A DNA stretch of 61,284 bases, filler included, from Sphacelaria rigidula (taxonomy: Eukaryota), in the NCBI GenBank assembly GCA_964200075.2. It is 8 parts of 8 records of this genome, joined end to end, with 100 filler letters (N's around TTAATTAATTAA, not from the genome) between each part and the next. Parts side by side here need not be neighbours in the genome. Positions count along the whole stretch, not along the records: positions 15,349 to 22,921 come from CAXNAA020014281.1; 7 more parts are not named here. One strand, written 5' to 3'. The stretch's first letter is position 1, and the number at the start of each line of letters is the position of its first letter. A program made the translations under genes and the position numbers. Below the pieces are notes generated by a model. The model saw only the letters and a program-made list of their open reading frames with translations. It had not been told where the DNA came from and ran no database searches. This document shows, piece after piece, positions 7,575 to 53,712 of the stretch.

Positions 7575-7674
7575 NNNNNNNNNNNNNNNNNNNNNNNNNN
7601 NNNNNNNNNNNNNNNNNNTTAATTAATTAANNNNNNNNNNNNNNNNNNNNNNNNNNNNNNNNNNNNNNNNNNNN
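7575..7674. other. Artificial contig spacer (44N-TTAATTAATTAA-44N)
   Basis: Identical 100-bp spacer carrying a six-frame stop linker. Confidence 0.98.
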
Positions 7675-8911
7675 TCTAGGGCGCGGTGGGGGTGGAGGGG
7701 GGGTGAGCAGGAGAGGGGGGGGGGGGGGGGGGGAGGGGGGGGGGGGGGGGGGAATGATGTAATGATGTGCATACTGGTACTTACCTACTGTAAAAGAATG
7801 AAGGAATTTTTCCAAGTAGCGTACATCTACTTAAAATACGACCCGAATCCACCATGTCACAACTGCTTCGATGAACATCCTTCTATCGTACGAGTCAGGA
7901 GGTCGAGGACCACAGGACATGGGGCACAGTTATCATCATTGCTTGGCGGTCCTCCTCGCAAGCAAAGAGGAACTACTGTCGGCTATCATTGTAGCGTCGG
8001 ACCTATACCAGCATACGAGAAGGTCAGCCGACGATATATTTCTGGAAAGTGGAGTGGTCTCTCACTCAAAGGCTTAATTAAAGAGTCGGATGACTGTCGG
8101 AATTCTAGCGGAAAACCCCAACGGAGAACACCGTCATTCGGGCTGCTTCTATTGATGCGAAAATATGTATCTCCTGGAAAGATGTCGCCAAGGGTTATAA
8201 TGGCGATCCTTCCACGTCGAAATGATTTGGTCAACGACATCGGCGGGAATTTCGGCACAATTTCATGTTTCCCGGCGCACGCAGTTTGGCATTGAGGCTG
8301 AGTGGGGATCTTCCGCGCAAATCCCCGTCCAAATTGCCACTTGCGCGAAAACGTGCCAGGTCAATCGAGGTTATATTAAATGTGACGGTTTTTCGGAGAA
8401 AATTTTGCAAGCCTGGCCATGAAATTTGTTGCGGCTACCAGGAAACACGAAGAGAGGGTGCTCTGGAACCGTCTCAAAGTGTCTTGCAAGTCATTCGGAG
8501 GCTTTCGAGTCCTCCTGGCGTTCTTTCACACAGACACGCGCGCGCATACACACAAATTAGCCTCCTTTTTGGGCGTGCAGCAATGTAGAAGGACCAAAGC
8601 AGTTTTCTAGAAGATTTTTTCGGGACCACGAGAAGCGGCCCGAAGGCAATAAAAAAGTGTACCGTTCTAGATATCCCAAATATTCATTCTAAACATCCCT
8701 CTTCTCGTGAACGGTGCAAATCCCCCCCACACGTCATGGAGTGCTACGCTGCTGTATTTAGTAACGCTATCAACGGAGACAACAAGGGACAACGTCAACC
8801 AAATGTTCGTGGATGATTCGTCGGTCATCTCTTCTCCCGATATGCATGGAGATTCCATGTACCCTGGACACAAGAATATCCCGTTGTCGAAAATATGCTG
8901 CGTACAGTATA

Positions 8912-15248: not shown

Positions 15249-15348
15249 NNNNNNNNNNNNNNNNNNNNNNNNNNNNNNNNNNNNNNNNNNNNTTAATTAA
15301 TTAANNNNNNNNNNNNNNNNNNNNNNNNNNNNNNNNNNNNNNNNNNNN
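15249..15348. other. Artificial contig spacer
   Basis: 44N-TTAATTAATTAA-44N. Confidence 0.98.
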
Positions 15349-15649
15349 TTCGCGCTTGGTGATTGAGCGCGAGCCTGATCCGGCGAAAACCCGGCGTGCT
15401 GCGTCCCGGCTTTGTTGGGATGCGAGGTCAATGGTCATGTGATATGGCACGCATTCTCATGAGTACACCCCTACAAAGCCGGTACGGAGGACGCCGGGTT
15501 TCCGTCGGACCAGGCTACAGGGGGGCGGGGGTGTTCTCATGATCATCCATGCCATAGTCATAGGACCATTGACCTCGCATCCCTACAAAGCCGGGGCGGA
15601 GCACGGGGTTTTCGCTGGACCAGGCTCGCACTCAATCACCAAGCGCGAA
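15349..15649. repeat. Imperfect inverted repeat with ~120-bp arms (15349-15471 and 15528-15649)
   Basis: The reverse complement of the left arm aligns to the right arm (ggggtgt.ctcatga...gaccattgacctcgcatccc.acaaagccggg...ctcaatcaccaagcgcgaa). Confidence 0.8.
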
Positions 15650-16271
15650 GCGCCGGGGTGTGTTCGGCGAGTCGCATGAAGGGTGATCCTGCTAGGATTG
15701 TTCGGCCCGAAGCGTACTAATTGTTGTCTTACATTTGGATGAGAGACTACAACGAGTTGCTTCATTCTCGGGTATCGCCATTTCCAGGGACATCCATGGC
15801 TTATACACTGCTGAGTGTCTCACCATCAGGGGGATGGGGGGGATAATGTTTGCGGCCGGCGTGTTTCTGCCTCTACAGTCAGAACCCCAGAACCTGCCTG
15901 GAAGTCATAACCAATCGAACAGCACATTTGCACAGAGCCAACAGTCCAGCCAATGCATTTCACATTCACCCAGCCAGACGAATGCTGCGATAGGGGGGTG
16001 TGTGTGTTCTGGATCACGTGTTCCACGAACGAGCCACTTCGCAGTCATCCTACGACAGGGAATCGGGTGTTTTGGCCCTGTTCTTGCGCGAAGAAGATAC
16101 TATTAACCATCGCTGCAAGCATCGAACTTCGTTCGCATGCCCTTGTTACCAACAACACACGCTTTCACAGGGATTGACATACCTTTCACCCACCTACAAG
16201 GATGACCAGCCTTCGAGGTCGTATTATTACACACTCATCAACCAAGGTGATGTACTTTTCTCGGTACCACC

Positions 16272-16700
16272 TGTTATGGCGGATATCAGTCCCTTGTGTA
16301 TAAGGCATTCTCGATGTGTATGATGTGGACGATAGGTCGTAGTCCAGCTGTACGTTAGTCGGGTTATATTCCAGTCGGGTTTTGCAGTACGGTATCACCC
16401 CCCGGCCGGTCAATTGTTTTTTGCTGCCTAGCAAGCTCAATAAGAAAGCTATCAGCCACCACCTGGAGACATCTCGCTTGCAAACAAGTCAAGAGCACTC
16501 TTCTGCACGTGAAAGTGAGTCCCTGCTTGGCCTTACGATGCAGTGCTGGTCGGGCTCGAAGGTCTGTTAGTCACGAGTTCGAGGGTCGCTCGTCTTTACT
16601 GCGATCGTTCATTGCGGCCAGCCGCTGACCTCGTGTCACCCCTGGCCTGGTATGATCCTTGAGAGTGACACCAGTATCGCCTCGTGGCTAGACCACTACA
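16272..16700 (+). repeat. 5' LTR (429 bp, TGT...ACA)
   Basis: Starts tgttatggcgg and ends ccactaca directly before the TGG of the PBS. The first 300 bp match 22622-22921 with about 10 substitutions. Confidence 0.9.
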
Positions 16701-16775
16701 TGGTGACCAATCCGAGAATCGAACTAGGGTTTCCACAGCCACAATGTGGTGTACTGACCACTATACTAATTAGTC
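16701..16775 (-). tRNA. Full-length tRNA-His(GUG) sequence with encoded CCA, at the PBS position of the Gypsy element
   Basis: Reverse complement: GACTAAT TA GTAT AGTGGTCA GTAC A CCACA TTGTGGC TGTGG AAAC CCTAG TTCGATT CTCGG ATTGGTC A CCA. This folds as a cloverleaf with anticodon GTG, one T-stem mismatch and intact A and B boxes. Confidence 0.92.
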
Positions 16776-16789
16776 AGGAGCGTTGTGGC

Positions 16790-19700
16790 GCAGCTTGCGC
16801 AAGGCCAACATCTTGGACGATACGCCAAACCCTGAGGCGGCAGGTGCTCTCTGTGCAGCTAAATCATCCCAGGGTAAAGTTCCCCCAATGCACATAGTCG
16901 GTTCCGTAACTGTGCCCTTGCTTTTAACCTCCAACTCTCGGGTCCGTAATGTAACAGTACAAGTAGTGGAGGGCCTGCCGTACGGCTTCATTTTAGGCGC
17001 AGATTATTTCCGGTACAATAATAGTATTATAGATTTCGATCCAGGAAAAAGGGTTCCGCCCCTCGAGAGCGGCGCCGTGGGTCCCGTTCCTGAGGAGCGA
17101 AAATCTTACCTACCACATTAAAGATATATTAGTAGCTGTGAACACCACGACGGAAACCACCGCCTCCCTAGCTGCGCCCGCTTATCCGTCCACTCACAAC
17201 TACCCCAGCTACCCTGACATGGCTTGGAAAGACGACAGCACCCTAGAATGGAAGCCAAGCTTGGTCGGACAAACGATCATGCTCAGCGGCTTCGTCAGCG
17301 CCGCGGTAGAAACAGCCGCGATCGGTCCTCAACCACAGGATACGCAGCTTGTGCTTGTACTCCCACCGGCAAAGTTCGATCTGGATAAGGGGGCAGAGGG
17401 CGCGAAGGGGGTATCGTGGTGGCAGCCGGGGTCGCCGGTGTACTGCAAACTTGTAAATAGAAGTAAGGAGCAGGTAGCGGTGAAGCCTGCTGGCACTGTC
17501 GCGCGTATGATCGCACGAACGTACGTGACCCCGCCAGGTTTCACTCACTGTTTGACCTACATCCATCTACGACAGACCCGCCCGTGGACCCCCCACCCCG
17601 CGCCTCACGTCCAGACAGTAGCTGCTCGGCACAACCAAATCAACGTGACGGACGCCAACATGGGCCAGCTTGGAGCAGCGGAAAAGAGAGAGCTGGTAGA
17701 CACGCTGCTGAGCTTTATCGAAGCTGGATTGTTCCCCACAGACCCCAAGTGGGTTCCCGCTTGTATCAACGGTGAGCTCGAACTCCCCCTCGCTAACGAG
17801 TCATGTGCGCCATTCCCATCTAAGCAACGCCGATTTCCCCCGGAGGAACGTCACATGATCCGCGAAGAGATACACAAGCTTCTTGATCGCGGGATCAGTC
17901 GACCGTCAACCTCCCCATGGGCAGCCCAATGCCTATGCGTGAAAAAAAAGACGGCACGTTGCGCTTGTGCATTGATTGGCGTGAACCGAATAAACTCTTA
18001 GTGTCGGACAGCGGGGGTCTCGGGGATACGCAATCCATTTTCGACGACCTCAAAGGTAAGCGTTACTTTATCCACCTCGACCTGGCCTACGGTTTCCACC
18101 AAATCGAGATCGCTGAGAACTACCGCTTCAAAACGGCGTTCCGAGATGCAGATGGCCTCTTATACAAGTTTACTGGAGCAGGCTTTGGTCTAACAGTTCT
18201 CCCCGCCGCGTTCACCCGTCGGGTAAAAGGTATACGGTAGGACAGTTGGATGGGGTGTTCACCTGGTTTGATGATATCCTTATCGCGACCACATCCTGGG
18301 ACGAGTATCTAGCTCTAGTCGTGACTGCCTTACAGCCCTTGTTGGTCGCGGCATTCTCGGTGAACTTCGCCAGGTGCATTTTTGCAGCGTCGTCGCAAGA
18401 GTTTCTGGGCATGCTGGTAGATAGCAGTGGCGTTCAACCCGCGCCATCCAAGCTCGCCGCCATCGCCGAAATGCCCAGACCATCCACCGTCGAGCAACTA
18501 CGTATTTTCCTCGGCCTCATAGGGTACTTGCGCCAGCTTGTTGAGAAGTACAGCCTAGAAGCCGCCTCACTAACCGACCTGCTTCGTAACAAAGATTTCG
18601 CATCCAAGCGAGCACGAAAGTTGTCCATACCGTGGAATACCGAGCAGGAGGAGGCGTTCCAAACCCTCAAAGCAGCGTTGTCCTCGCCGAAGGTACTAGC
18701 CCTCCCCGATCTCAACACGCCCCCCCCGATCTCAACAACGCGTTTATGCTGCAGACAGACGCAAGCGAGGTGGGTGCTGGGGCGGTGCTGCTGCAGTCTG
18801 TGGGGTGCGAAACACGCATCGTATCATTTGGCAGCCATCGATTCTCTCGCAACGACTCGTGCAGAGCACTCACAGCACGAGAGTGCATGGCTGTCTTGTG
18901 GACTGTCCAGAACTATAGACCATACCTTGCTGGAAGAAGGTTCACGTTGATCACTGAATGTTAGGCACTCACATGGTTGTTCCGTAGCCGCGATCTCTGC
19001 CCCAAGTTGCACAGGTGGTCCCTGCGACTAATGGAGTATGACATCGACCTCCAGTGGCGGTAGGGGTTCCAACATGTGCTGCCAGATGCATTGTCCCGAC
19101 TCCCACACGCGAGTGATCCACAGCCCGACATTGGTGACTCCTTTCCGGACGATTTCACGTCGGGCTTGCCGACAGAATTTGTAGGCCCACAGGGACCACA
19201 ACTCGCGGGACAACGACTGTTGGAACTACAACCAGAAGGAGCGGGTACGTCAGTGAGCGCAGACACAAGTATGCACTCATCGTCGAACTCCAACAACCCA
19301 CCGGACATCGCAACCCTGAGGTTACTCCCTTTCTCAGGAAGCAAGCGCAGTCATCACCGATAACCAACCTGTGCGCCGTTCAACTCGTACTCGCAGACCG
19401 TCAGTACGCCTGCAACCCCCCGATGCTGCGTATACAACACCCCTGCCCTTCACTCCTCAAGTGGTCCCCCCGAATCCGCCCGCAGAGCCAACGCCGATTG
19501 AAATACCGCTACAGGTGCCGACATTGATCGTTCCGCCGACAACTGGTGACGGGGTAGGAGTGGGTGAAGTGCTCCTAGACGGGGGGAGAGATGCCAACGG
19601 GGTAAGCGGACCCGGACCTGACGGACACAACGGCGATCGATCGTGCACTACGGATACTCACCAACGTGAGCAATCTCCGGCACCATCAACAAGGGGATTC

Positions 19701-21467
19701 CTTCCTCAAACAGGTGCAGTCAAATCTTGCAGGCAGCGAAACACCAGAGACGGTGAGTGAGAGACGATCAGACTACAAATCAGACGAGCAAGGTATGCTG
19801 TGGTACCGAGCAGCCGACGATAATGAGCTGCTAGCTGTCCCGAAAACGGTGGTAGCTGACCTGTTGGCACTCGTGCATGCACTCCACGGACATGTCGGAG
19901 TAGGCGCCACCCTTGCTCTGATGCACGATCGCTTCCACTGGTCTACCATGACACGTGACACCAGACAGTACATGTTATGTGCAGCTGTAGACGACGCAAG
20001 GCAAGCCGCTGTCAAATGGCGAGGAGACCGGGGCGCACTCTACACCCATGGGCCGAGTTGGAAATCGACCCACTTACCATTGATGTGATGTCGCACTCGC
20101 GCAACAAGTATATTCTGCTGGTACTTGAACGCGCCTCCCGATTCCCGTTCGGGTTTCCTCTGCCATCAAAGGAAGCGGACAAGATCGCACGCATCCTAGC
20201 AGAGTTATGCCTAACGTTTGGTGCTATCCCACAAATGGTCCGCTGCGACAGGGGCAAAGAGTTTGGGGCCGATGTCGTCACGCATCTGTGCAGGCGGTTG
20301 AAGGCGGACATCACCTTCGGGCCGTCAGACCACCCACGCGGTCAGGAAGCGGTCGAGCGACTTGGGGGGTGGCTGTTAAACATGCTATCGGAACTGTGTA
20401 GGCTGTGGCCCCAGAGGCGGGATGAATATGTCTCACCCGCCCTCTGGATCAAGCGCACATTGCCCGACACATCGGTCCCCTGTAACATGTCCTCTTTTGA
20501 GCTGTTATTCGGCCGCAAACCGCGCACATCGCTGGACTCGCTCGTGCCCCTCTCACAAGAAGCAGGACCGAGCAAGGGACTAGATGCCTTCGTTGAAGAG
20601 CGCAAACAGAACCTGCGCGAGGTAAGGATGCCGATGGACAAAAGGCAGGGGGCAAAAGCAGCGTTGCGGGAGAAGGGCAATGCAGCCATCTCGAGACCAT
20701 CAGCAGGCGTGTCGGTCACGGAAGGGAATCTGGTAATGGTGAGGGAGAGTGAAAGCTCCACGTATCGAGATGGCAGGGGCTGGAAGCTGCAGCACGACAG
20801 ATATGCGGGACCTTGGACGGTGAAAAAGGTACTGATGGTCGGACACAGTCTCGAGGTAGTGATGCAAGGACGAAAACTACGTACTCGCACAGCAGCCCCG
20901 CCTGATGTCAAACCGTACCATGTACGGCCGCCGTACTTGAGACACTTCATTACCGACGAGTTCGCCCAGTTTGCATGGGGATCGGACTTCAAGATATCGT
21001 CTTCGCCTAACTCCACACCCCGCCTCCTTACCCTAGTGAACCGCCGCGAGTGCAAATCAGGGAAAGGAAGTGCAGGTTGGGAGTACCGAGGAAGGACTCA
21101 GGAGGCGGCGACGTCAGAGTGGCTTCCGGAGAGCAAAGTCCTGGAAAGCTTCACACCTCTGCAACTGGATGGGTTTGACGCACTCTGGTGCCTTCACCAC
21201 CCGGCCAAGACACCAAGTAAGTACGCCGTCTCGCCCAAAAACCCGCTATGCCCCCTGTCACGCAGTAATGCCCTGAACTTGTTCCCCATAGGTCTCATGT
21301 TCCGGAAGAATTTCGGTGGGGTCAAGCAGAAGGGACAAGTGTTCGACTACGGCAAGCATTTCTGGAGAGTGCGATACGACGACGGGGACTAGGACGAGCT
21401 GTCACGGAGAGAACTCCAACGGCTAGCGCAGTCGAGCGAGACGGCAACACCGCCAGTCACGAGCTAG
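16790..21467 (+). pseudogene. pol: Gypsy pol pseudogene: partial protease, RT, RNase H, integrase with C-terminal extensions; multiple frameshifts and stops
   Basis: PR C-terminus FILGADYF. RT: PSTSPWAA, KKDGTLRLCIDWR, LDLAYGFHQI, WFDDILI. RH: LQTDASEVGAGAVLLQ, RECMAVLW, PDALSR. IN: HALHGH...FHW, VRCDRGKEF, AVERLGG, YAGPW. Confidence 0.93.
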
Positions 21468-22604
21468 GAAGTGGCGTAATTGGAAAACAAACAAACAAAA
21501 GAGAATTGCACTAGGCGTGATAAAGCATGGTACCTTGAGAATGTGCAGTCTACATCCTTTTGTTTCCCGTTTTCGTTCTGTTCCGTCATATATATAGTTT
21601 GAGGAAGGAGGTACGAATCGTTGCTTGATTTTTTTTCTTCTTCCTTTCTTCGCCCCCGTTCCCCCTTTTTTAATACTTCGTACATAGATATATGCTTCTG
21701 GCGGATGGATCTCGTTGAATTAGCCGGGGGGTTTTCGTCTCCCCCGGGTTCCATAGCCTCTTTTGCTTGTTTTTTCTAGCCCCTTCTTGTCCTATTGCGC
21801 CTACGCGGCTCCTCCGTTTCGTCATAGCTTGGTTTTTCGTCCTGATTGGAGGTGAAGTTGCGTTGCCCTTTTCCACGCTGTGTACTATGGCTTTATATAT
21901 ATATATATGTATATATTTCTCTCTGTGGTCAGTCCTAGTTCCGTCTCATGCTTTTTTTTTTGTCTCCGTGAATGCGGATCCGACTTCAAGGTGCCTCCCT
22001 CTTTTCGAGTAGAAACAAGTCATGTCGTAGAGGTAGCATTGTACAAGAAATGTGGGCACCGAGTACCTGCCTGGACACTGTTCCATGACAGAACTCTTGA
22101 TCCAAGATGTAAGAACCCCCGCTGTCCACTAGATCAGCGGTTGCTGGTCGATGGGAGAAGAGCCTACGCACTCCCATCAGCCAGCAAACGTATTCTTGTT
22201 TTTAGTGGGTCAGTTTTTTGCGAGTCCCACACTACCCAGGATTGGTGTTATCAATCACGGGTGTCTAAGCGCCGTTACCACCTGAAAACAGTTTCAACGA
22301 TTCTCAGTGGTTTATGTTCCCGGTGTTACTTGGATTCCGGGACGACATAGCACACGCGAAAGCACTCGCCATGATTCGTAGGGGCGTTATTAGAGATTTT
22401 CCCCCCAAACGATGAGGCTTTTCCCCTGAATACCAGGTTTGGCCCATCGTTTGGTTTCATGACAAGTTTCTCCCGTGGTCGTCACTAGCCCTGGAATTCC
22501 TCGGTTTTCTCGTCGATATAAGGCAGATGGTTTGTATTTGAGTGGATTTTCCCCAGTATGAAATGAGCCGTGACGCTCCCTACCTTGCATTCAGCAGCGC
22601 GCAC

Positions 22605-22621
22605 AAAGGAAGAGAGGGGGA
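22605..22621 (+). promoter_or_regulatory. Polypurine tract
   Basis: aaaggaagagaggggga immediately before the 3' LTR. Confidence 0.85.
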
Positions 22622-22921
22622 TATTATCGCGGATATCAGTCCCACATGTATAAGGCATTCTCGATGTGTATGATGTGGACGATAGGTCGTATTCCAGCTG
22701 TACGTTAGTCGGGTTATATTCCAGTCGGGTTTTGCAGTACGGTATCACCCCCCGGCGGGTCAGTTGTTTTTTACTGCCTAGCAAGCTCAATAACAAAGCT
22801 ATCAGCCACCACCTGGAGACATCTCGCTTGCAAACAAGTCAAGAGCACTCTTCTGCACGTGAAAGTGAGTCCCTGCTTGGCCTTACGATGCAGTGCTGGT
22901 CGGGCTCGAAGGTCTGTTAGT
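22622..22921 (+). repeat. 3' LTR (truncated)
   Basis: Direct repeat of 16272-16571. Confidence 0.92.
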
Positions 22922-23021
22922 NNNNNNNNNNNNNNNNNNNNNNNNNNNNNNNNNNNNNNNNNNNNTTAATTAATTAANNNNNNNNNNNNNNNNNNNNNNN
23001 NNNNNNNNNNNNNNNNNNNNN
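22922..23021. other. Artificial contig spacer
   Basis: 44N-TTAATTAATTAA-44N. Confidence 0.98.
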
Positions 23022-25472: not shown

Positions 25473-25775
25473 CCGGTCTCCCCGGTGGCTCAGTTGGTAA
25501 CCTTGACACCTTCTGACGGTTGGGGCGTGGGTTCCTATCCCGGAGGGATCTTGGATTTTTCTCACACCATGCCCACAGTGGAGAGCGACTATGCCGTGGG
25601 TACACAAAGTTTGACTTAACCGTCGACGACGGAAAGGGACCGCTGTACCCCTCTCGCGAAAAAGATGAAGGCAAGCACCGCAGAAGGAAGGTGGAGTACC
25701 AAAACAAACAAACAAAAAAGACTGTGCAGGCCTTCCTCCTGTGTGACCCCGGCTGGTGCGCCCACATATACCGAA
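25473..25775 (+). mobile_element. tRNA-derived SINE
   Basis: A box ggtggctcagttggt and a degenerate B box gggttcctatccc. The body (cagtggagagcgactatg...gcaagcaccgcagaaggaaggtggagt...tgtgaccccggctg) is shared with other copies. Confidence 0.8.
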
Positions 25776-27043: not shown

Positions 27044-28063
27044 TCATCCGACTGTTCCGGACGAATTGCTGTATGCAGTCGTCGCCGCGGCAGGCGGCGG
27101 GATGAACGACCCGGGAATGCTTACATTGGCGATGTTAACGCTTCCATTCGTTGCTGCTTTCTTTAGTTGTACCTTCAACTCGGCGTCGCTGTGTGTTGTT
27201 GTTCTATGATACGAGCACCATTTTAATGCTTCATTCCCTCCGTTCATCTTGCCTGCCTTTCGACGCCTCTGTGTCGGGTTACTCGGCCGTGTCAGACTTC
27301 GCTTGTTGTTCGAGCATTCACGTTGATAGTGCCCAAACCCCTTGCAAAGGTGACACTGTATACCAGATGTCGTAGCCTGCATGGCCGCTCCAGGTCCGGC
27401 CACGGTTGGTGCAGTTGACGTACCAAAACTCCGATCATTGTACGCGTTGCACATTGCGGTGCGAATGTTGTCGAGGCCGAAGTCGCGCTCGGTGTAGCAT
27501 TTCGTGCGCACGAAGTCATACTCGGGGGTTATCGCCTTGAGGATAATGTCCTCGTAGCGATCGTCGTGCATTTTATCCCCGAGACCCTCCAGACGCAGTC
27601 GAATTTCGTCCATGTCTTGGAAGAAATTTTCGGGGTCCTCGCCCGGTTTCATCGTGCGGCTAACCAGCTGAGCGTGAACTGCCCGCCTAGCCGCTTTGGT
27701 GTTGCAGTCGAACTTCTCAACCAAGGCCTTCCACGCACCTCGCCCATCGCCGACCCGCGGGTCATCGAGATCTTCATCCTCTGTGTACAAAACCCGCCGG
27801 ATCGTCGCAGCTGCAGGCCCGGTCGTTGAAAGGAACAACAGTGAAGAAAGGTCGCTGTTCTTTCGGTCCCATGCGCGCCCTGCTGGTTCATCAGTAGGCC
27901 TTCGTTGACCGTTGAGAACGGCGAACATCGGCTTATCAACGATATAGATAGCTACTCGCAGCTGATCATTCCATGCGATGAAGGTGTTCCTATCGTTCGA
28001 AAATCTCGGTACCCGTTTGAATACGGCCGTTATGCGGTCGGAACTGGTGGCGGTGTAACTCAT
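27044..28063 (-). CDS. gag: Ty1/Copia gag (UBN2-like core + CCHC zinc knuckle)
   Basis: Open ~340 codons containing DGRGAWKALVEKF, MKPGEDPENFF, LKAITPEYD, the knuckle CHLCKGFGHYQREC and WCSYHRTTTHS. Confidence 0.85.
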   Translation of the reverse strand: MSYTATSSDRITAVFKRVPRFSNDRNTFIAWNDQLRVAIYIVDKPMFAVLNGQRRPTDEPAGRAWDRKNSDLSSLLFLSTTGPAAATIRRVLYTEDEDLDDPRVGDGRGAWKALVEKFDCNTKAARRAVHAQLVSRTMKPGEDPENFFQDMDEIRLRLEGLGDKMHDDRYEDIILKAITPEYDFVRTKCYTERDFGLDNIRTAMCNAYNDRSFGTSTAPTVAGPGAAMQATTSGIQCHLCKGFGHYQRECSNNKRSLTRPSNPTQRRRKAGKMNGGNEALKWCSYHRTTTHSDAELKVQLKKAATNGSVNIANVSIPGSFIPPPAAATTAYSNSSGTVG

Positions 28064-28085
28064 CGTACAGAGAGAAAATGAACCG

Positions 28086-28480
28086 CGCAACGCTAAGCGC
28101 TTCGGGGCTTATCAATGCTCGACGCGCAAGTGCGATTTCCCAGACTGTGCCGCCTTCCTGCGGGCACAGGTTTTCACTGTAGCTTGTACAGACTGCAGCT
28201 GGTGCAGGTTTCGTCCGCAGGGATGATGACGTACGCAACGCTGTACGCTTCGGGGCTTATCAATGCTCGACGCGCAAGTGCGGTTTCCCAGACTGTGCCG
28301 CCTTCCTGCACGTACAGGTTTTCACTGTAGCTTGTACAGACTGCAGCTGGTGCAGGTTTCGTTCGCAGGGATGATGACGTACGCAACGCTGTACGCTTCG
28401 AGGCTTATCAATACTCGACGCGCGAGTGCGATTTCCCAGACTGTGCCGCCTTCCTGCGCGCACAGGTTTTCACTGTAGCT
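28086..28480. repeat. 148-bp tandem repeat, ~2.7 near-identical copies
   Basis: The unit cgcaacgct...gcttatcaatgctcgacgcgcaagtgcg...caggttttcactgtagct...gggatgatgacgta recurs with period 148. Confidence 0.95.
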
Positions 28481-28483
28481 CGA

Positions 28484-30193
28484 TGCCAGAGATTCCGGAG
28501 GGGGGAGAAAGTGGTCATAGTGCCGAACACTTTTCAAGAGGCAATGCGACTGCCAGAGGCGAAGCAGTGGAAGGCAGCATCAGACAAAGAAATAGAAAGC
28601 CTTCGTTCCAATAATGTCTTCACGCTTGTACTCTTCACGGCGATTCCTGCAGGGGTGAAAGCCATCGGATCCCGGTGGGTGTATAAGGTGAAAGCCGACA
28701 ACACATACAAGGGAAGACTGGTCGTCCAAGGATGGGGACAAGTACCGGGCATCGACTGCGGCGGCACCTTCGCTCCCGTCTGTAGGCTACAGAGCACCGT
28801 ATGGTGCTCGCAGCGGCCGCGGAGATGGACTAGGAAATCTGGCAGCTGGACGTGCAGACGGCATTTCTAAACGCGCCCGTTGAAGAGGAAGTTTACGTCA
28901 AGATGGCCCCGGGCTATGAGGAGAACGATCCCGTGACAAGAGTTCCTCTCGTGATGAATCTCCATAAGTCATTATATGGCCTTCGCCAGTCGCCACTATA
29001 TTGGTGGAGCACCATGGACAATTTTCTGGGGGAGATCGGTTTTACCTCTCTCGCTTCAGATCCCTGCGTAAACGCCTTTACTGACAACGACGACAACGAC
29101 AACATCAGGGCCGGCAACTCCCGGGGCGACACCGTCAGCACCGCTGTCAGAAGGAGGAAGGTTGTCGCACTTCTCACCCTCTACGTGGACGATGTGCTCC
29201 TTGTTGGAGGGGACGTGGCAGTACTGCAGATGCTCAAGAAAAAGCTCATGGTTCGTTTCAAAATGACGGACATGGGAGACGTGTCACTTGTACTCGGAAT
29301 GAGAGTCACCCGAGACCACAAGAATGGGACGCTCACTCTCAGCCAGGAGAACTACACCAAATCGATCCTGGAGAAGTACGGCATGGGGGACTGCAATCCG
29401 CTGAGCACACCAGGAACGCGAGCAGAGCTGTCATTGAACCAACCAGAAGGGCAACCTCTGGATCCGGCGGCAACACAGCGATACCAGGCGATCACCGGCT
29501 CGTTAATGTATGTATTTAGCACAAGTGACCCGGTATGATATCCAGTTTGCTGTCAACCAGCTTGCGAGAGCGATGTCAACACCATCAAAAGCACACATGG
29601 GTGCTGCGAAACATATTTTACGTTACCTTGCGGGGAGTGCTAGTTTCGATATCACGTACAGGAAGGGAGGATTTCAGCTCATCGCGTTTTCGGAGGCCAA
29701 CTGGGGGAACAACCCGGATAACGGGAAATCGATGTCCTCGTATATCGCGATGCTCTCGAACGCTCCGGTGAGTTTCAAAGTCGGAATACAGGGTCTAACT
29801 GCTCAGTCGACAATGGAAGCTGAGCTTGTGGCGGCAGCGCTGGCAATGAAGGAGGCTGTGTTCTGTTCCAACGTGATGATGGAGCTGGGATTCGGCGAGG
29901 TATTTCACAGTGTTCCCGTTCACATAGACAACACCTCAATACTTCACGTTGCCGGTAACAGCACCTACAGTGGACGGACCAACCATGTGGCATTGCGCTA
30001 CTTCTTCATTCGCAAACTCATCAAGAAGCGAAGGGTCACCCTTCATCACGTAGACACCAAGAACAACATCGCCGACATTGGGACGAAATACTTGGGCAAA
30101 CATCGTCACCTGCATCTGCTGCACGTAACCAAGACCTTTAGGACTTCAAATAAAGAGGCGGACGAGAGAGCTGGTCTGATGCGTACTTTCTAG
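28484..30193 (+). pseudogene. pol: Ty1/Copia RT-RNase H pseudogene; protease and integrase absent
   Basis: PNTFQEAM, WVYKVK, YKGRLVVQGWGQVPGID, KSLYGLRQSP, LYVDDVLL, MTDMG, AQSTMEAE, HIDN, NIADIGTK. Frameshifts near 28800 and 29510. Confidence 0.93.
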
Positions 30194-30594: not shown

Positions 30595-30694
30595 NNNNNN
30601 NNNNNNNNNNNNNNNNNNNNNNNNNNNNNNNNNNNNNNTTAATTAATTAANNNNNNNNNNNNNNNNNNNNNNNNNNNNNNNNNNNNNNNNNNNN
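30595..30694. other. Artificial contig spacer
   Basis: 44N-TTAATTAATTAA-44N. Confidence 0.98.
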
Positions 30695-38267: not shown

Positions 38268-38367
38268 NNNNNNNNNNNNNNNNNNNNNNNNNNNNNNNNN
38301 NNNNNNNNNNNTTAATTAATTAANNNNNNNNNNNNNNNNNNNNNNNNNNNNNNNNNNNNNNNNNNNN
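38268..38367. other. Artificial contig spacer
   Basis: 44N-TTAATTAATTAA-44N. Confidence 0.98.
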
Positions 38368-40877: not shown

Positions 40878-41100
40878 CGGTCGCCCCTGTGGCTTAATTC
40901 GTAACCTCTAAACCTTCTGACGGTTGGGTCGGTGATTCGAACCTCGATGAAGTCACACGATCTGGATATTTTCTCACACCATGCTCAACAGTGGAGAGCG
41001 ACTATGTCGTGGGCATCTGAAGTTCGACTGCATGGTCGACGAGGGAAAGGGACTGCTGAATCCCTCTCGCGATCGTAAAAAAGGGTAAACACCGCAAACA
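40878..41100 (+). mobile_element. tRNA-derived SINE, 3'-truncated
   Basis: cggtcgcccctgtggctt...accttctgacggttggg...attcgaacc...gaagtcacacgatct matches the copy at 13052-13367. Confidence 0.8.
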
Positions 41101-42874: not shown

Positions 42875-44059
42875 CAGCACTCTTTACGGTACACGTCACT
42901 CGTACGTTACACGTCACAAAAACCACGTCACAACGGTGTAACGTGACGAGACGTATGATTCACAGATACCGTAGGTAAGGTAGGTACCTGGTACCGGTAT
43001 TTGGGATGTCTCATACCCTATCGATACCGGTCCAATCCGGTATTTTGAAATTTCTTACCCACGACACCTACCGTACCAGGGTATTTCGAGATTTCAATAC
43101 CTACCGTGCCCGCCAAATCCGGTATTTTGAAATTTCATACCTACGACACCTACCGTACCAGGGTATTTCGAGATTTCAATACCTACCGTACCCGCCAAAT
43201 CCGGTATTTTCAAAACTCATACCTACGATACCTACCCATACCACGGTATGGGATACCCCGGTAAATACCGGGGGTACGCTCGGTACGGTACCTTACCTAC
43301 GGTGCCTGTGGTACGTTTCTTGAAGACGTCACAAATGTGACCTGATGTGACGTACCGGTAAAAAAATGTGACGTGACGTGACGTCCATTTTTTTAAACGT
43401 CACATGAGCGCATTTTGGAACGTTTGGTGTAACGTGTAACGTATTTTACATGCTACACATTATTTTATACGTTACACGTTTGTGACGTCTGAATAAACGT
43501 CACAAACGTCACACGCTTAACTTGTACCACAATGTGACGTGACGTACCGGGAAAAAATTGCGACGTGACGTAACGTATCATTTTTCAAGACGTCAAAATG
43601 TGACGTGACGTGACGTGACGTGACGTATTTTTTAAAACATCACATCGACGTATTTTGAACCGTTTCTTGTAACGTGTAGCGTATTTATTACGTTACACGT
43701 TTATGATGTCTGAATGAACGTCACAAACGTTTATTGTGACGTCTGAATGAACGTCACAAACGTCACCGTAAACCTCCCGTACTAAGCTGCGCTACATGAA
43801 ACGTCACAATGTCGTACGTAGCGTCCATTTGCCCTCAACACGGTCGAAGTGTAATGTTTCTTTTCACGTCACACATCACAAACGTAACGTATATTGTACG
43901 TTACACATTACAATAAACGTGTCAAAATACGTTAATGTGATGTGACGTTACGCATACTATTTTACGACGTCACAAGTATGACGTGACGCAACGTGACGTA
44001 AAAGTTTCAGGACGTCACATTTGTGAGGTAACGTGTAACATGTGAGGTGAAGAGTCCTG
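42875..44059. mobile_element. Non-autonomous hAT-like element packed with GTGACGT/GTAACGT motifs
   Basis: Termini cagcactctttac and (reverse complement) caggactcttcac. Perfect 8-bp TSD GTCACAAT at 42867-42874 and 44060-44067. Confidence 0.85.
42961..43310. mobile_element. Nested CAC-ended MITE with internal 82-bp tandem repeats
   Basis: TIRs cacagataccgtaggtaaggta and (reverse complement) cacaggcaccgtaggtaaggta. aatccggtattttgaaatt... recurs with period 82. Confidence 0.8.
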
Positions 44060-44260: not shown

Positions 44261-44854
44261 GTAACCACTACAAAAGAAGAAAGTAAGCGTGACCGTTAGG
44301 GATGCTGAACGGAAGGGGGGTGCTATCCACCGAAAAGTGTCTGGGCTGTTCGACGACACCTCACCGACCATATACCACTCTTGACGGAGGATCCTGAGAA
44401 ATGGGGTTCAACATTAAAATGCCGTTCAACTTCAGAAGAATGTTTTTTTTACCTGAAGTTATGAAATATAACTTTCAGATATGGACGACCTCACCCCCCC
44501 ACCGATCTCCCTGAAACTATTTCGGGGGGTTTCCAGTCTTCCGCTGCCGCGAAGGGTATGTGCGAAAACACATCTTTGCCTCGATTTCGGGGTGAAAAAG
44601 GGGACGCTTTTTAGCCCGATAATGATTGTTTTGCATATAGCTGTACCCTGTGGGGGAACAGAAGCAAGGAAACCTCCCAAAATAATTCCAGGGAGATCGG
44701 GGGAGGGGGCGGGGGGGGGGGGGGGGGGGGGGGGGGGCGGCCGTATTAATTGCGGTTTTTTTTTTTTCCCCTGGGGGAAGCACTTGTCTTAAATTTAATT
44801 ATTTTNNNNNNNNNNGGGGGGGGTGAGGGGAAAGGGGGGCGTGAAGGGCCGAGA

Positions 44855-44906
<52 letters not shown>

Positions 44907-45940: not shown

Positions 45941-46040
45941 NNNNNNNNNNNNNNNNNNNNNNNNNNNNNNNNNNNNNNNNNNNNTTAATTAATTAANNNN
46001 NNNNNNNNNNNNNNNNNNNNNNNNNNNNNNNNNNNNNNNN
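45941..46040. other. Artificial contig spacer
   Basis: 44N-TTAATTAATTAA-44N. Confidence 0.98.
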
Positions 46041-53612: not shown

Positions 53613-53712
53613 NNNNNNNNNNNNNNNNNNNNNNNNNNNNNNNNNNNNNNNNNNNNTTAATTAATTAANNNNNNNNNNNNNNNNNNNNNNNNNNNNNNNN
53701 NNNNNNNNNNNN
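53613..53712. other. Artificial contig spacer
   Basis: 44N-TTAATTAATTAA-44N. Confidence 0.98.

Follow-up and report, generated by a model that had tools for sequence, protein, structure and literature searches.

The window, as we call the whole stretch of DNA analysed here (61,284 bases), contains a decayed LTR retrotransposon in which the 5′ LTR is followed directly by the complement of a complete tRNA-His, and the tRNA in turn by what is left of a protease gene. Runs of N recur every 7,672-7,674 bases along the window, and each linker consists of 44 N, a 12-base spacer with stop codons in all frames, and a further 44 N. The window thus consists of unplaced assembly pieces of near-equal length, strung together in order of length, and is not contiguous genome, so that the neighbours on either side of a linker are unrelated. 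The features to which the text refers are the following.

7575-7674, 15249-15348, 22922-23021, 30595-30694, 38268-38367, 45941-46040 and 53613-53712: linkers between assembly pieces
15349-22921 (7,573 bases): assembly piece bearing the element, delimited by the spacing of the N runs and by the linker as seen in alignment
16272-16700, plus strand: 5′ LTR, 429 bp, TG at its start and CA at its end, a direct repeat with the 3′ LTR
16701-16775, minus strand: full tRNA-His(GUG) cloverleaf including CCA, antisense to the element (ARAGORN; Rfam RF00005)
16701-16718, plus strand: primer-binding site (PBS) proper, complement of tRNA-His positions 59-76 including CCA, its 18-nt limit being that of the textbook stop at A58
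16719-16775, plus strand: putative read-through insert, running from the complement of tRNA position 58 to that of position 1, with ambiguity in its final 3 nt
16773-16775, plus strand: GTC overlap at the junction, common to the complement of the tRNA 5′ end and to the interior of sister copies
16774-17121, plus strand: protease remnant ORF, 115 aa, lacking the catalytic DTG part, placed by alignment to relatives
17887-18240, plus strand: reverse transcriptase (RT) fragment (PF00078, E 4.7e-6, 26.9 bits, below the cut-off of 29.6), frame broken
18590-18964, plus strand: RNase H domain (PF17917, E 1.9e-17)
19606-21392, plus strand: integrase with H2C2 zinc-binding domain, catalytic core and C-terminal Tudor-like tail, in two overlapping frames
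22605-22621, plus strand: polypurine tract (PPT), a 17-nt purine run read immediately 5′ of the 3′ LTR
22622-22921, plus strand: 3′ LTR, incomplete, the assembly piece ending inside it

Neither a second copy of the element nor a further His PBS with up to three mismatches was found elsewhere in the 61,284-base window. The other pieces hold two tandem repeats, one of 148 nt in three copies (77-100%) at 28063-28506 and one of 82 nt in three copies (63-100%) at 43027-43272, and there are long G runs at about 7700-7750 and 44830-44900. In addition, an 85-nt stretch (25575-25659 and 40988-41072, 82%) is common to two assembly pieces and is probably another dispersed repeat.

Anatomy of the element

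The element has an LTR pair in direct orientation, a PBS behind the 5′ LTR and a PPT before the 3′ LTR, as is usual for Ty3/gypsy retrotransposons, and its pol domains follow one another on the plus strand in the Ty3/gypsy order of protease, RT, RNase H and integrase. The LTRs are 97% identical (16274-16571 against 22624-22921, nine differences in 298 nt), a divergence at which about 1.2 substitutions are expected per 75 nt since insertion. The element is decayed, with its pol coding sequence spread over several broken frames. In the integrase, the zinc-binding domain (PF17921, E 1.2e-8) and the catalytic core (PF00665, E 1.9e-8) were recognized by Pfam, as was, weakly, a C-terminal Tudor-like domain (PF21743, E 0.0095).

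Relatives of the element were reached by a search with the integrase ORF instead of the protease ORF, since the latter, when compared with the longer proteins of the protein collection, gave no match at E ≤ 0.001. The integrase search returned 19 related proteins, the best nine of which show 55-57% identity across 95% or more of the query; the best relatives are polyproteins of 1,521-1,647 aa. Three further matches bear a source name from an Ectocarpus strain, and it is on this basis alone that we call the element brown-alga-type.

The Tudor-like domain of this integrase family is of the PTM/DIR17 type and lies at 21299-21392 of the window (residues 447-477 of the ORF at 19959-21392). It is also precomputed for five of the nine best relatives (P0001, P0003, P0007, P0008 and P0009). 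It occupies the place that the chromodomain has in chromoviruses, and may be a targeting module. Between the end of the integrase and the PPT there is a region of about 1.2 kb (21400-22620), partly AT-rich and of low complexity, which has no Pfam match and would be unusually long as the 3′ untranslated region of a gypsy element.

The most informative part of the element is its 5′ end. Between the 5′ LTR and the protease remnant there is nothing but the 75 nt of the tRNA; neither a leader nor gag is present. What comes after the tRNA is the C-terminal part of the protease, a deletion that the first-pass annotation of this locus had overlooked. The ORF of this remnant begins within the tRNA, one codon short of its end. 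A Pfam search of its 115 residues gave no match, and its identity comes from two alignments, one with residues 83-180 of P0001, a polyprotein of 1,647 aa (E 5e-20, 42% identity), the other with residues 1-62 of the polyprotein P0002 (E 1e-19, 52%). Ahead of the point at which the alignment begins, the relatives have some 10 to 82 further residues, among them DTGA. In five of the seven aligned relatives the DTGA protease motif stands 9-10 residues upstream of the column in which the window ORF starts, and the remaining two, which are predicted proteins, start later, at a methionine. Because DTGA lies just upstream in the relatives, the interior of this copy must start immediately behind the protease active site. 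The copy is a deletion derivative of a Ty3/gypsy (Metaviridae) family, from which the gag upstream of pol is missing.

The tRNA-His copy behind the 5′ LTR

The 5′ LTR closes with ...ACA, the final A being base 16700, and the tRNA follows without any spacer, its complement opening with 18 nt that make up a normal PBS. ARAGORN found a single tRNA in the 61,284-base window, namely tRNA-His with anticodon GTG at 16701-16775 on the minus strand. The Rfam tRNA model RF00005 matched 16704-16775 on the same strand over model positions 1-71 of 71, scoring 56.6 bits where the gathering score is 29, with E values of 1.4e-9 when computed for the window and 7.1e-12 when computed for 301 bases. Bases 16701-16703 are TGG on the plus strand, i.e. 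the complement of CCA. The two programs and direct reading thus bear out the first-pass annotation, which had described a full tRNA-His with CCA directly after the 5′ LTR. The strings resembling the A box and the B box that it had reported on the minus strand are also both present on direct reading against the usual box consensus. The structure of the tRNA was judged by the covariance model and not by the minimum-free-energy fold, which for these 75 nt gives no cloverleaf, is not better than that of shuffled sequences (z -0.77), and is uninformative for a tRNA.

The RF00005 alignment contains exactly one non-standard pair, which is in the T stem. The earlier reading had drawn attention to two odd pairs between the PBS and the rest of the tRNA, and both are there; however, T4:G69 is an ordinary G-U wobble, as is a third pair in the D stem (T13:G22), so that T51:C63 in the T stem is the only true mismatch of the cloverleaf. 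This mismatch needs no special cause, given the substitutions expected per 75 nt from the LTR divergence. The suggestion that the PBS had been re-templated from a host isodecoder is therefore unnecessary. PBS and insert together make up one cloverleaf in which only this pair is non-standard, so that all 75 nt derive from one tRNA species.

Two further properties of the copy are less informative than they may seem. The CCA had been taken as a sign that the mature primer was copied, but every tRNA-type PBS starts with TGG, and the CCA is therefore no special evidence. At the other end, the trinucleotide GTC belongs both to the tRNA complement and to the interior of sister copies, and for this reason the copy can be traced with certainty no further than tRNA position 4. 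Mature eukaryotic tRNA-His carries G-1, and base 16776 of the window is not C; as a test for a mature tRNA-His template this carries no weight, given that the final 3 nt of the copy could equally belong to the interior.

Like a functional nuclear tRNA gene, the copy has a cloverleaf with internal boxes; in contrast to such a gene, it encodes CCA, and the nearest run of at least four T is 1.3 kb away. The absence of an oligo-T terminator from the minus strand within the LTR, noted at first pass, was confirmed and extends further, as the only plus-strand run of at least four A in 15349-16700 is that at 15386-15389. The embedded tRNA is most likely a passive fossil rather than a working gene.

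Other collections added nothing to the locus. In the viral contig collection two DNA patterns gave no matches, and neither did the integrase protein. Among metagenome contigs, an 18-mer of the 3′ part of the tRNA found 33 loci (35 matches), none with a tRNA-His or an LTR junction; all of them match the tRNA at no more than 25-38 of its 75 positions and are due to chance.

Sister copies in public sequencing runs

Four public runs (X1-X4) were searched as Logan contigs. They may include the sample behind the assembly of the window, and each contained 20-30% of the sampled words. Between 267 and 770 contigs per run matched at 85% likeness or more, and the family is therefore highly repeated.

On the right-hand side of the tRNA, sister copies are readily found. 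Three contigs of X3 match the window from 16773 rightward, and leftward of this point they carry a median of 255 nt of other sequence, in which they agree with one another (0.93). In X3, the match of record 21 (depth 1055) and that of record 22 (610 nt) begin at 16773, and that of X4 record 27 (depth 985) begins at 16778. The last 30 leftward letters of the sister contigs, translated by hand in the frame of the ORF, contain DTGA in register with the relatives. What lies beside 16773 in these contigs is protease coding sequence, and not a tRNA.

On the left-hand side, the match of X4 record 26 begins inside the LTR and ends at 16712, beyond which the two sequences diverge; this record suggests a sister copy that agrees with the window only as far as some point in the PBS. 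X1 record 1 is identical to the window across the join of 5′ flank and LTR (16200-16372), although X1 may be the source sample and the match is then not independent. In the comparison of sister copies by which the first-pass annotation had proposed to decide between a family feature and a single event, the high-depth contigs have no tRNA at 16773 and record 26 departs from the window at 16712, but among the contigs listed none bridges 16712-16773, and hence neither the passage from PBS into tRNA nor the junction of tRNA and interior is spanned.

The depth of the matching contigs is uneven over the tRNA. Over 16733-16773, the 5′ half of the tRNA, the depths add up to 6-14 times the value of the neighbouring bin to the right in X1, X2 and X4, and to about three times that value in X3; for X4 the figure is about eight times, corresponding to roughly a hundred single-copy equivalents. 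tRNA-His genes alone would not be expected to give this depth, and further tRNA-His-derived copies may exist. In X2 the depth in the bin 16774-16814 is 3.2, which for this run is about single-copy. One contig of X4, likewise at about the single-copy level, contains a tRNA-His-like sequence from which 16726-16740 are missing (16760 being joined to 16741), and may represent a second tRNA-His-derived copy elsewhere in the genome.

Over 16698-16732, very many contigs in all four runs match the His PBS behind unlike LTR ends. Contigs matching from 16698 onward behind unlike and heterogeneous sequence number 19 in X3 and six in X2. It seems that several abundant LTR families of this organism are primed by tRNA-His and have the His PBS in common.

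Origin of the copy and comparison with known systems

Because the plus strand of the element reads as the complement of the tRNA, the tRNA itself is read on the minus strand, in the very place that the RNA primer occupies on minus-strand DNA. Plus-strand strong-stop synthesis is the only standard step of reverse transcription in which the primer is copied, and it normally ends after 18 nt, at the methylated A58. In the present copy, as would be expected of a read-through product, the PBS continues without interruption into the same tRNA, and the insert ends at a deletion junction with an internal site of the element, some 10 codons past the protease DTG. Central to the mechanism is the deletion of the leader, gag and the start of the protease: a tRNA that stands in their place, joined to the interior through a 3-nt overlap, is the signature of read-through followed by downstream transfer. 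We consider it probable that a single aberrant strand-transfer event copied the whole tRNA-His primer into a Ty3/gypsy copy that was born defective and is now dead.

The anatomy of the copy, the protease sequence that sisters and relatives have in the place of the tRNA, and the 3-nt overlap are what the sequences show; the course of the event can be reconstructed as follows. Plus-strand strong-stop DNA would have run past the 18 3′-terminal nucleotides of the primer to the 5′ end of the tRNA, or to within 3 nt of it. The 3′ end of such a read-through product would have found no complement in the minus-strand copy of the PBS; it would instead have paired through the GTC overlap inside the protease coding region, and would then have been extended. 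The integrated product would have consisted of LTR, whole tRNA-His complement, second half of the protease, RT, RNase H, integrase, PPT and LTR, and the leader, gag and the protease active site would thereby have been lost. We infer that the steps occurred in this order, that the event took place once, and that the primer was under-modified at A58, and also at G37 if this position is methylated in the host; methylated G37 is a possible second modified site that the read-through had to pass. The alternative of a one-off read-through of the whole primer, which had been put forward at first pass beside that of a family feature, is thus strengthened by the continuity of tRNA and PBS, by the replacement of gag and the protease start, by the 3-nt overlap, and by the normal protease of sisters and relatives.

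Of the other explanations, the one that survives best, improbable as we judge it, is that the copy belongs to a propagating non-autonomous lineage, i.e. a gag-less, tRNA-bearing derivative mobilised in trans by autonomous relatives, whose 18-nt PBS is copied anew in each cycle. Such a lineage would account for the high depth at 16733-16773 in all four runs, and what is needed in cis (LTRs, PBS and PPT) is present. The two odd pairs noted earlier both join the 18-nt PBS to the part that would be inherited with the element, but one of them is a normal G-U pair. The high-depth contigs at 16773 carry protease sequence and no tRNA, and the near single-copy depth of X2 at 16774-16814 speaks weakly against a lineage. 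In addition, packaging signals usually reside in the leader or gag region, which is deleted here. Even less probable is the further possibility that the gag-less copy is a founder or member of such a lineage in which the embedded tRNA-His, whose internal Pol III boxes are intact, is transcribed and processed and acts on the replication of its own family, serving as a local source of primer or giving rise to 3′ tRNA fragments that compete for the His PBS common to very many LTR elements of this genome.

An event at the DNA level appears very unlikely. The PBS could have recombined with, or been repaired from, a genomic tRNA-His gene, or a tRNA retro-pseudogene could have inserted; in either case an unrelated deletion would have to be added. 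tRNA-derived retro-copies with CCA are known from eukaryote genomes, and X4 contains the other, truncated tRNA-His-like contig. However, this explanation requires two precise breakpoints at the exact ends of the mature tRNA, with no flank of the tRNA gene carried along, and leaves to coincidence that the CCA is in register with the end of the LTR and that the deletion begins exactly at the PBS.

An assembly artefact, i.e. a chimera of an LTR, a tRNA-His gene and the interior of an element, is to be given just as little credit. The piece on which the element lies is indeed short and unplaced and has a repeat at its end, and among the contigs listed none spans the tRNA. Nevertheless, a tRNA gene has no CCA and would have at most 15 nt in common with the PBS, and the overlap at the other junction is 3 nt; neither overlap would seed a join in assembly. 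The junction of flank and LTR at 16200-16372 was moreover matched without difference in X1 record 1, with the reservation already made that X1 may be the source sample.

The least credible explanation is a functional feature of the family, in which a stable antisense tRNA-His gene transcribed by Pol III supplies the element's own primer or a tRNA-fragment decoy: the cloverleaf is intact and has strings resembling the A and B boxes, but the sister contigs and five of seven related proteins have a canonical protease at the same point, with no tRNA beside 16773 in the contigs, the copy lacks gag and the protease active site and hence is not the autonomous form, the tRNA strand lacks an oligo-T terminator for 1.3 kb, the T stem contains a mismatch, and the element is decayed with its frames broken, so that the self-priming family proposed in the first-pass annotation finds no support here.

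If our reading is correct, the copy would be a natural record, fixed in the germ line, of an error of reverse transcription so far documented mainly in HIV-1 proviruses and retroviral vectors. It would imply that, in a brown-alga-type element, the Ty3/gypsy RT is able to copy practically the full length of the tRNA-His primer, past position 58 and also past G37 if this is methylated, and that the read-through product can still be completed and integrated by way of a transfer on a 3-nt overlap. For annotation, it follows that a tRNA call immediately behind an LTR can be a copy of the primer and not a gene. Elements of this kind would preserve the full sequence of the primer isodecoder as it was at the time of the event, and the number of primer copies in the whole genome would gauge how leaky the A58 stop is in the lineage.

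It is known from other elements that more of the tRNA than its 3′ end can matter, as it does here: in Ty1 and Ty3, short boxes provide extended contacts with the primer, and copia and Tca2 use half-tRNA primers. Those boxes or internal tRNA fragments are under selection and belong to functional elements, and we know of no case among them in which a contiguous full-length tRNA complement has replaced gag. Closer in mechanism are the large deletions that Pulsinelli and Temin reportedly described in 1991 for spleen necrosis virus vectors, where errors of strand transfer, with faulty plus-strand transfer, likewise gave deletions starting at the PBS; that was a single-cycle experimental vector system.

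The part of Fukuda et al. (2021, PMC8599865) available to us identifies m1A58 and m5Um54 as the stops for plus-strand strong-stop DNA, the loss of which gives a run-on, non-complementary product. As far as that part goes, it accounts for the usual 18-nt PBS and predicts read-through DNA that mismatches the minus strand and cannot integrate (PMC8599865); the algal copy would then be an integrated exception, rescued by downstream transfer. A different association of a tRNA with a large proviral deletion is outlined in the accessible portion of Gurgo and Franchini (2025, PMC12220202), namely retro-transcribed tRNA(Gly) beside deleted HIV proviruses. As described there, it resembles the present case in linking a reverse-transcribed tRNA to the deletion, but the tRNA in question is not the primer, is found at the 3′ end of the provirus and is accounted for by a self-priming model (PMC12220202).

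Among the results listed by a literature search, conducted mostly at title level, there was no full-length copy of a primer tRNA in an LTR retrotransposon outside the retroviruses. The nearest counterpart is the deferred second-strand transfer of HIV-1, for which the accessible portion of Hardy et al. (2025, PMC12657518) reports, in 44 defective proviruses (one provirus and 43 GenBank sequences), a PBS followed by 7-54 nt of tRNA(Lys3) and then by the deletion junction. Judged by that portion, the algal copy shares with the HIV-1 products an intact 5′ LTR and PBS, an uninterrupted complement of the primer tRNA, a downstream deletion junction and a defective product (PMC12657518). It differs from them in its host, an alga, in being a Ty3/gypsy retrotransposon primed by tRNA-His, and in the length of the insert past the PBS, which at 54-57 nt takes in the whole tRNA, compared with the 7-54 nt given for HIV-1. 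Furthermore, the algal copy is fixed in a germ-line genome, with an LTR divergence of 3%, unlike the proviruses as they are presented there (PMC12657518). The type of error is thus already known, and what appears to be new is its setting and extent: an algal retrotransposon, a tRNA-His primer copied in essentially its whole length, and long fixation.
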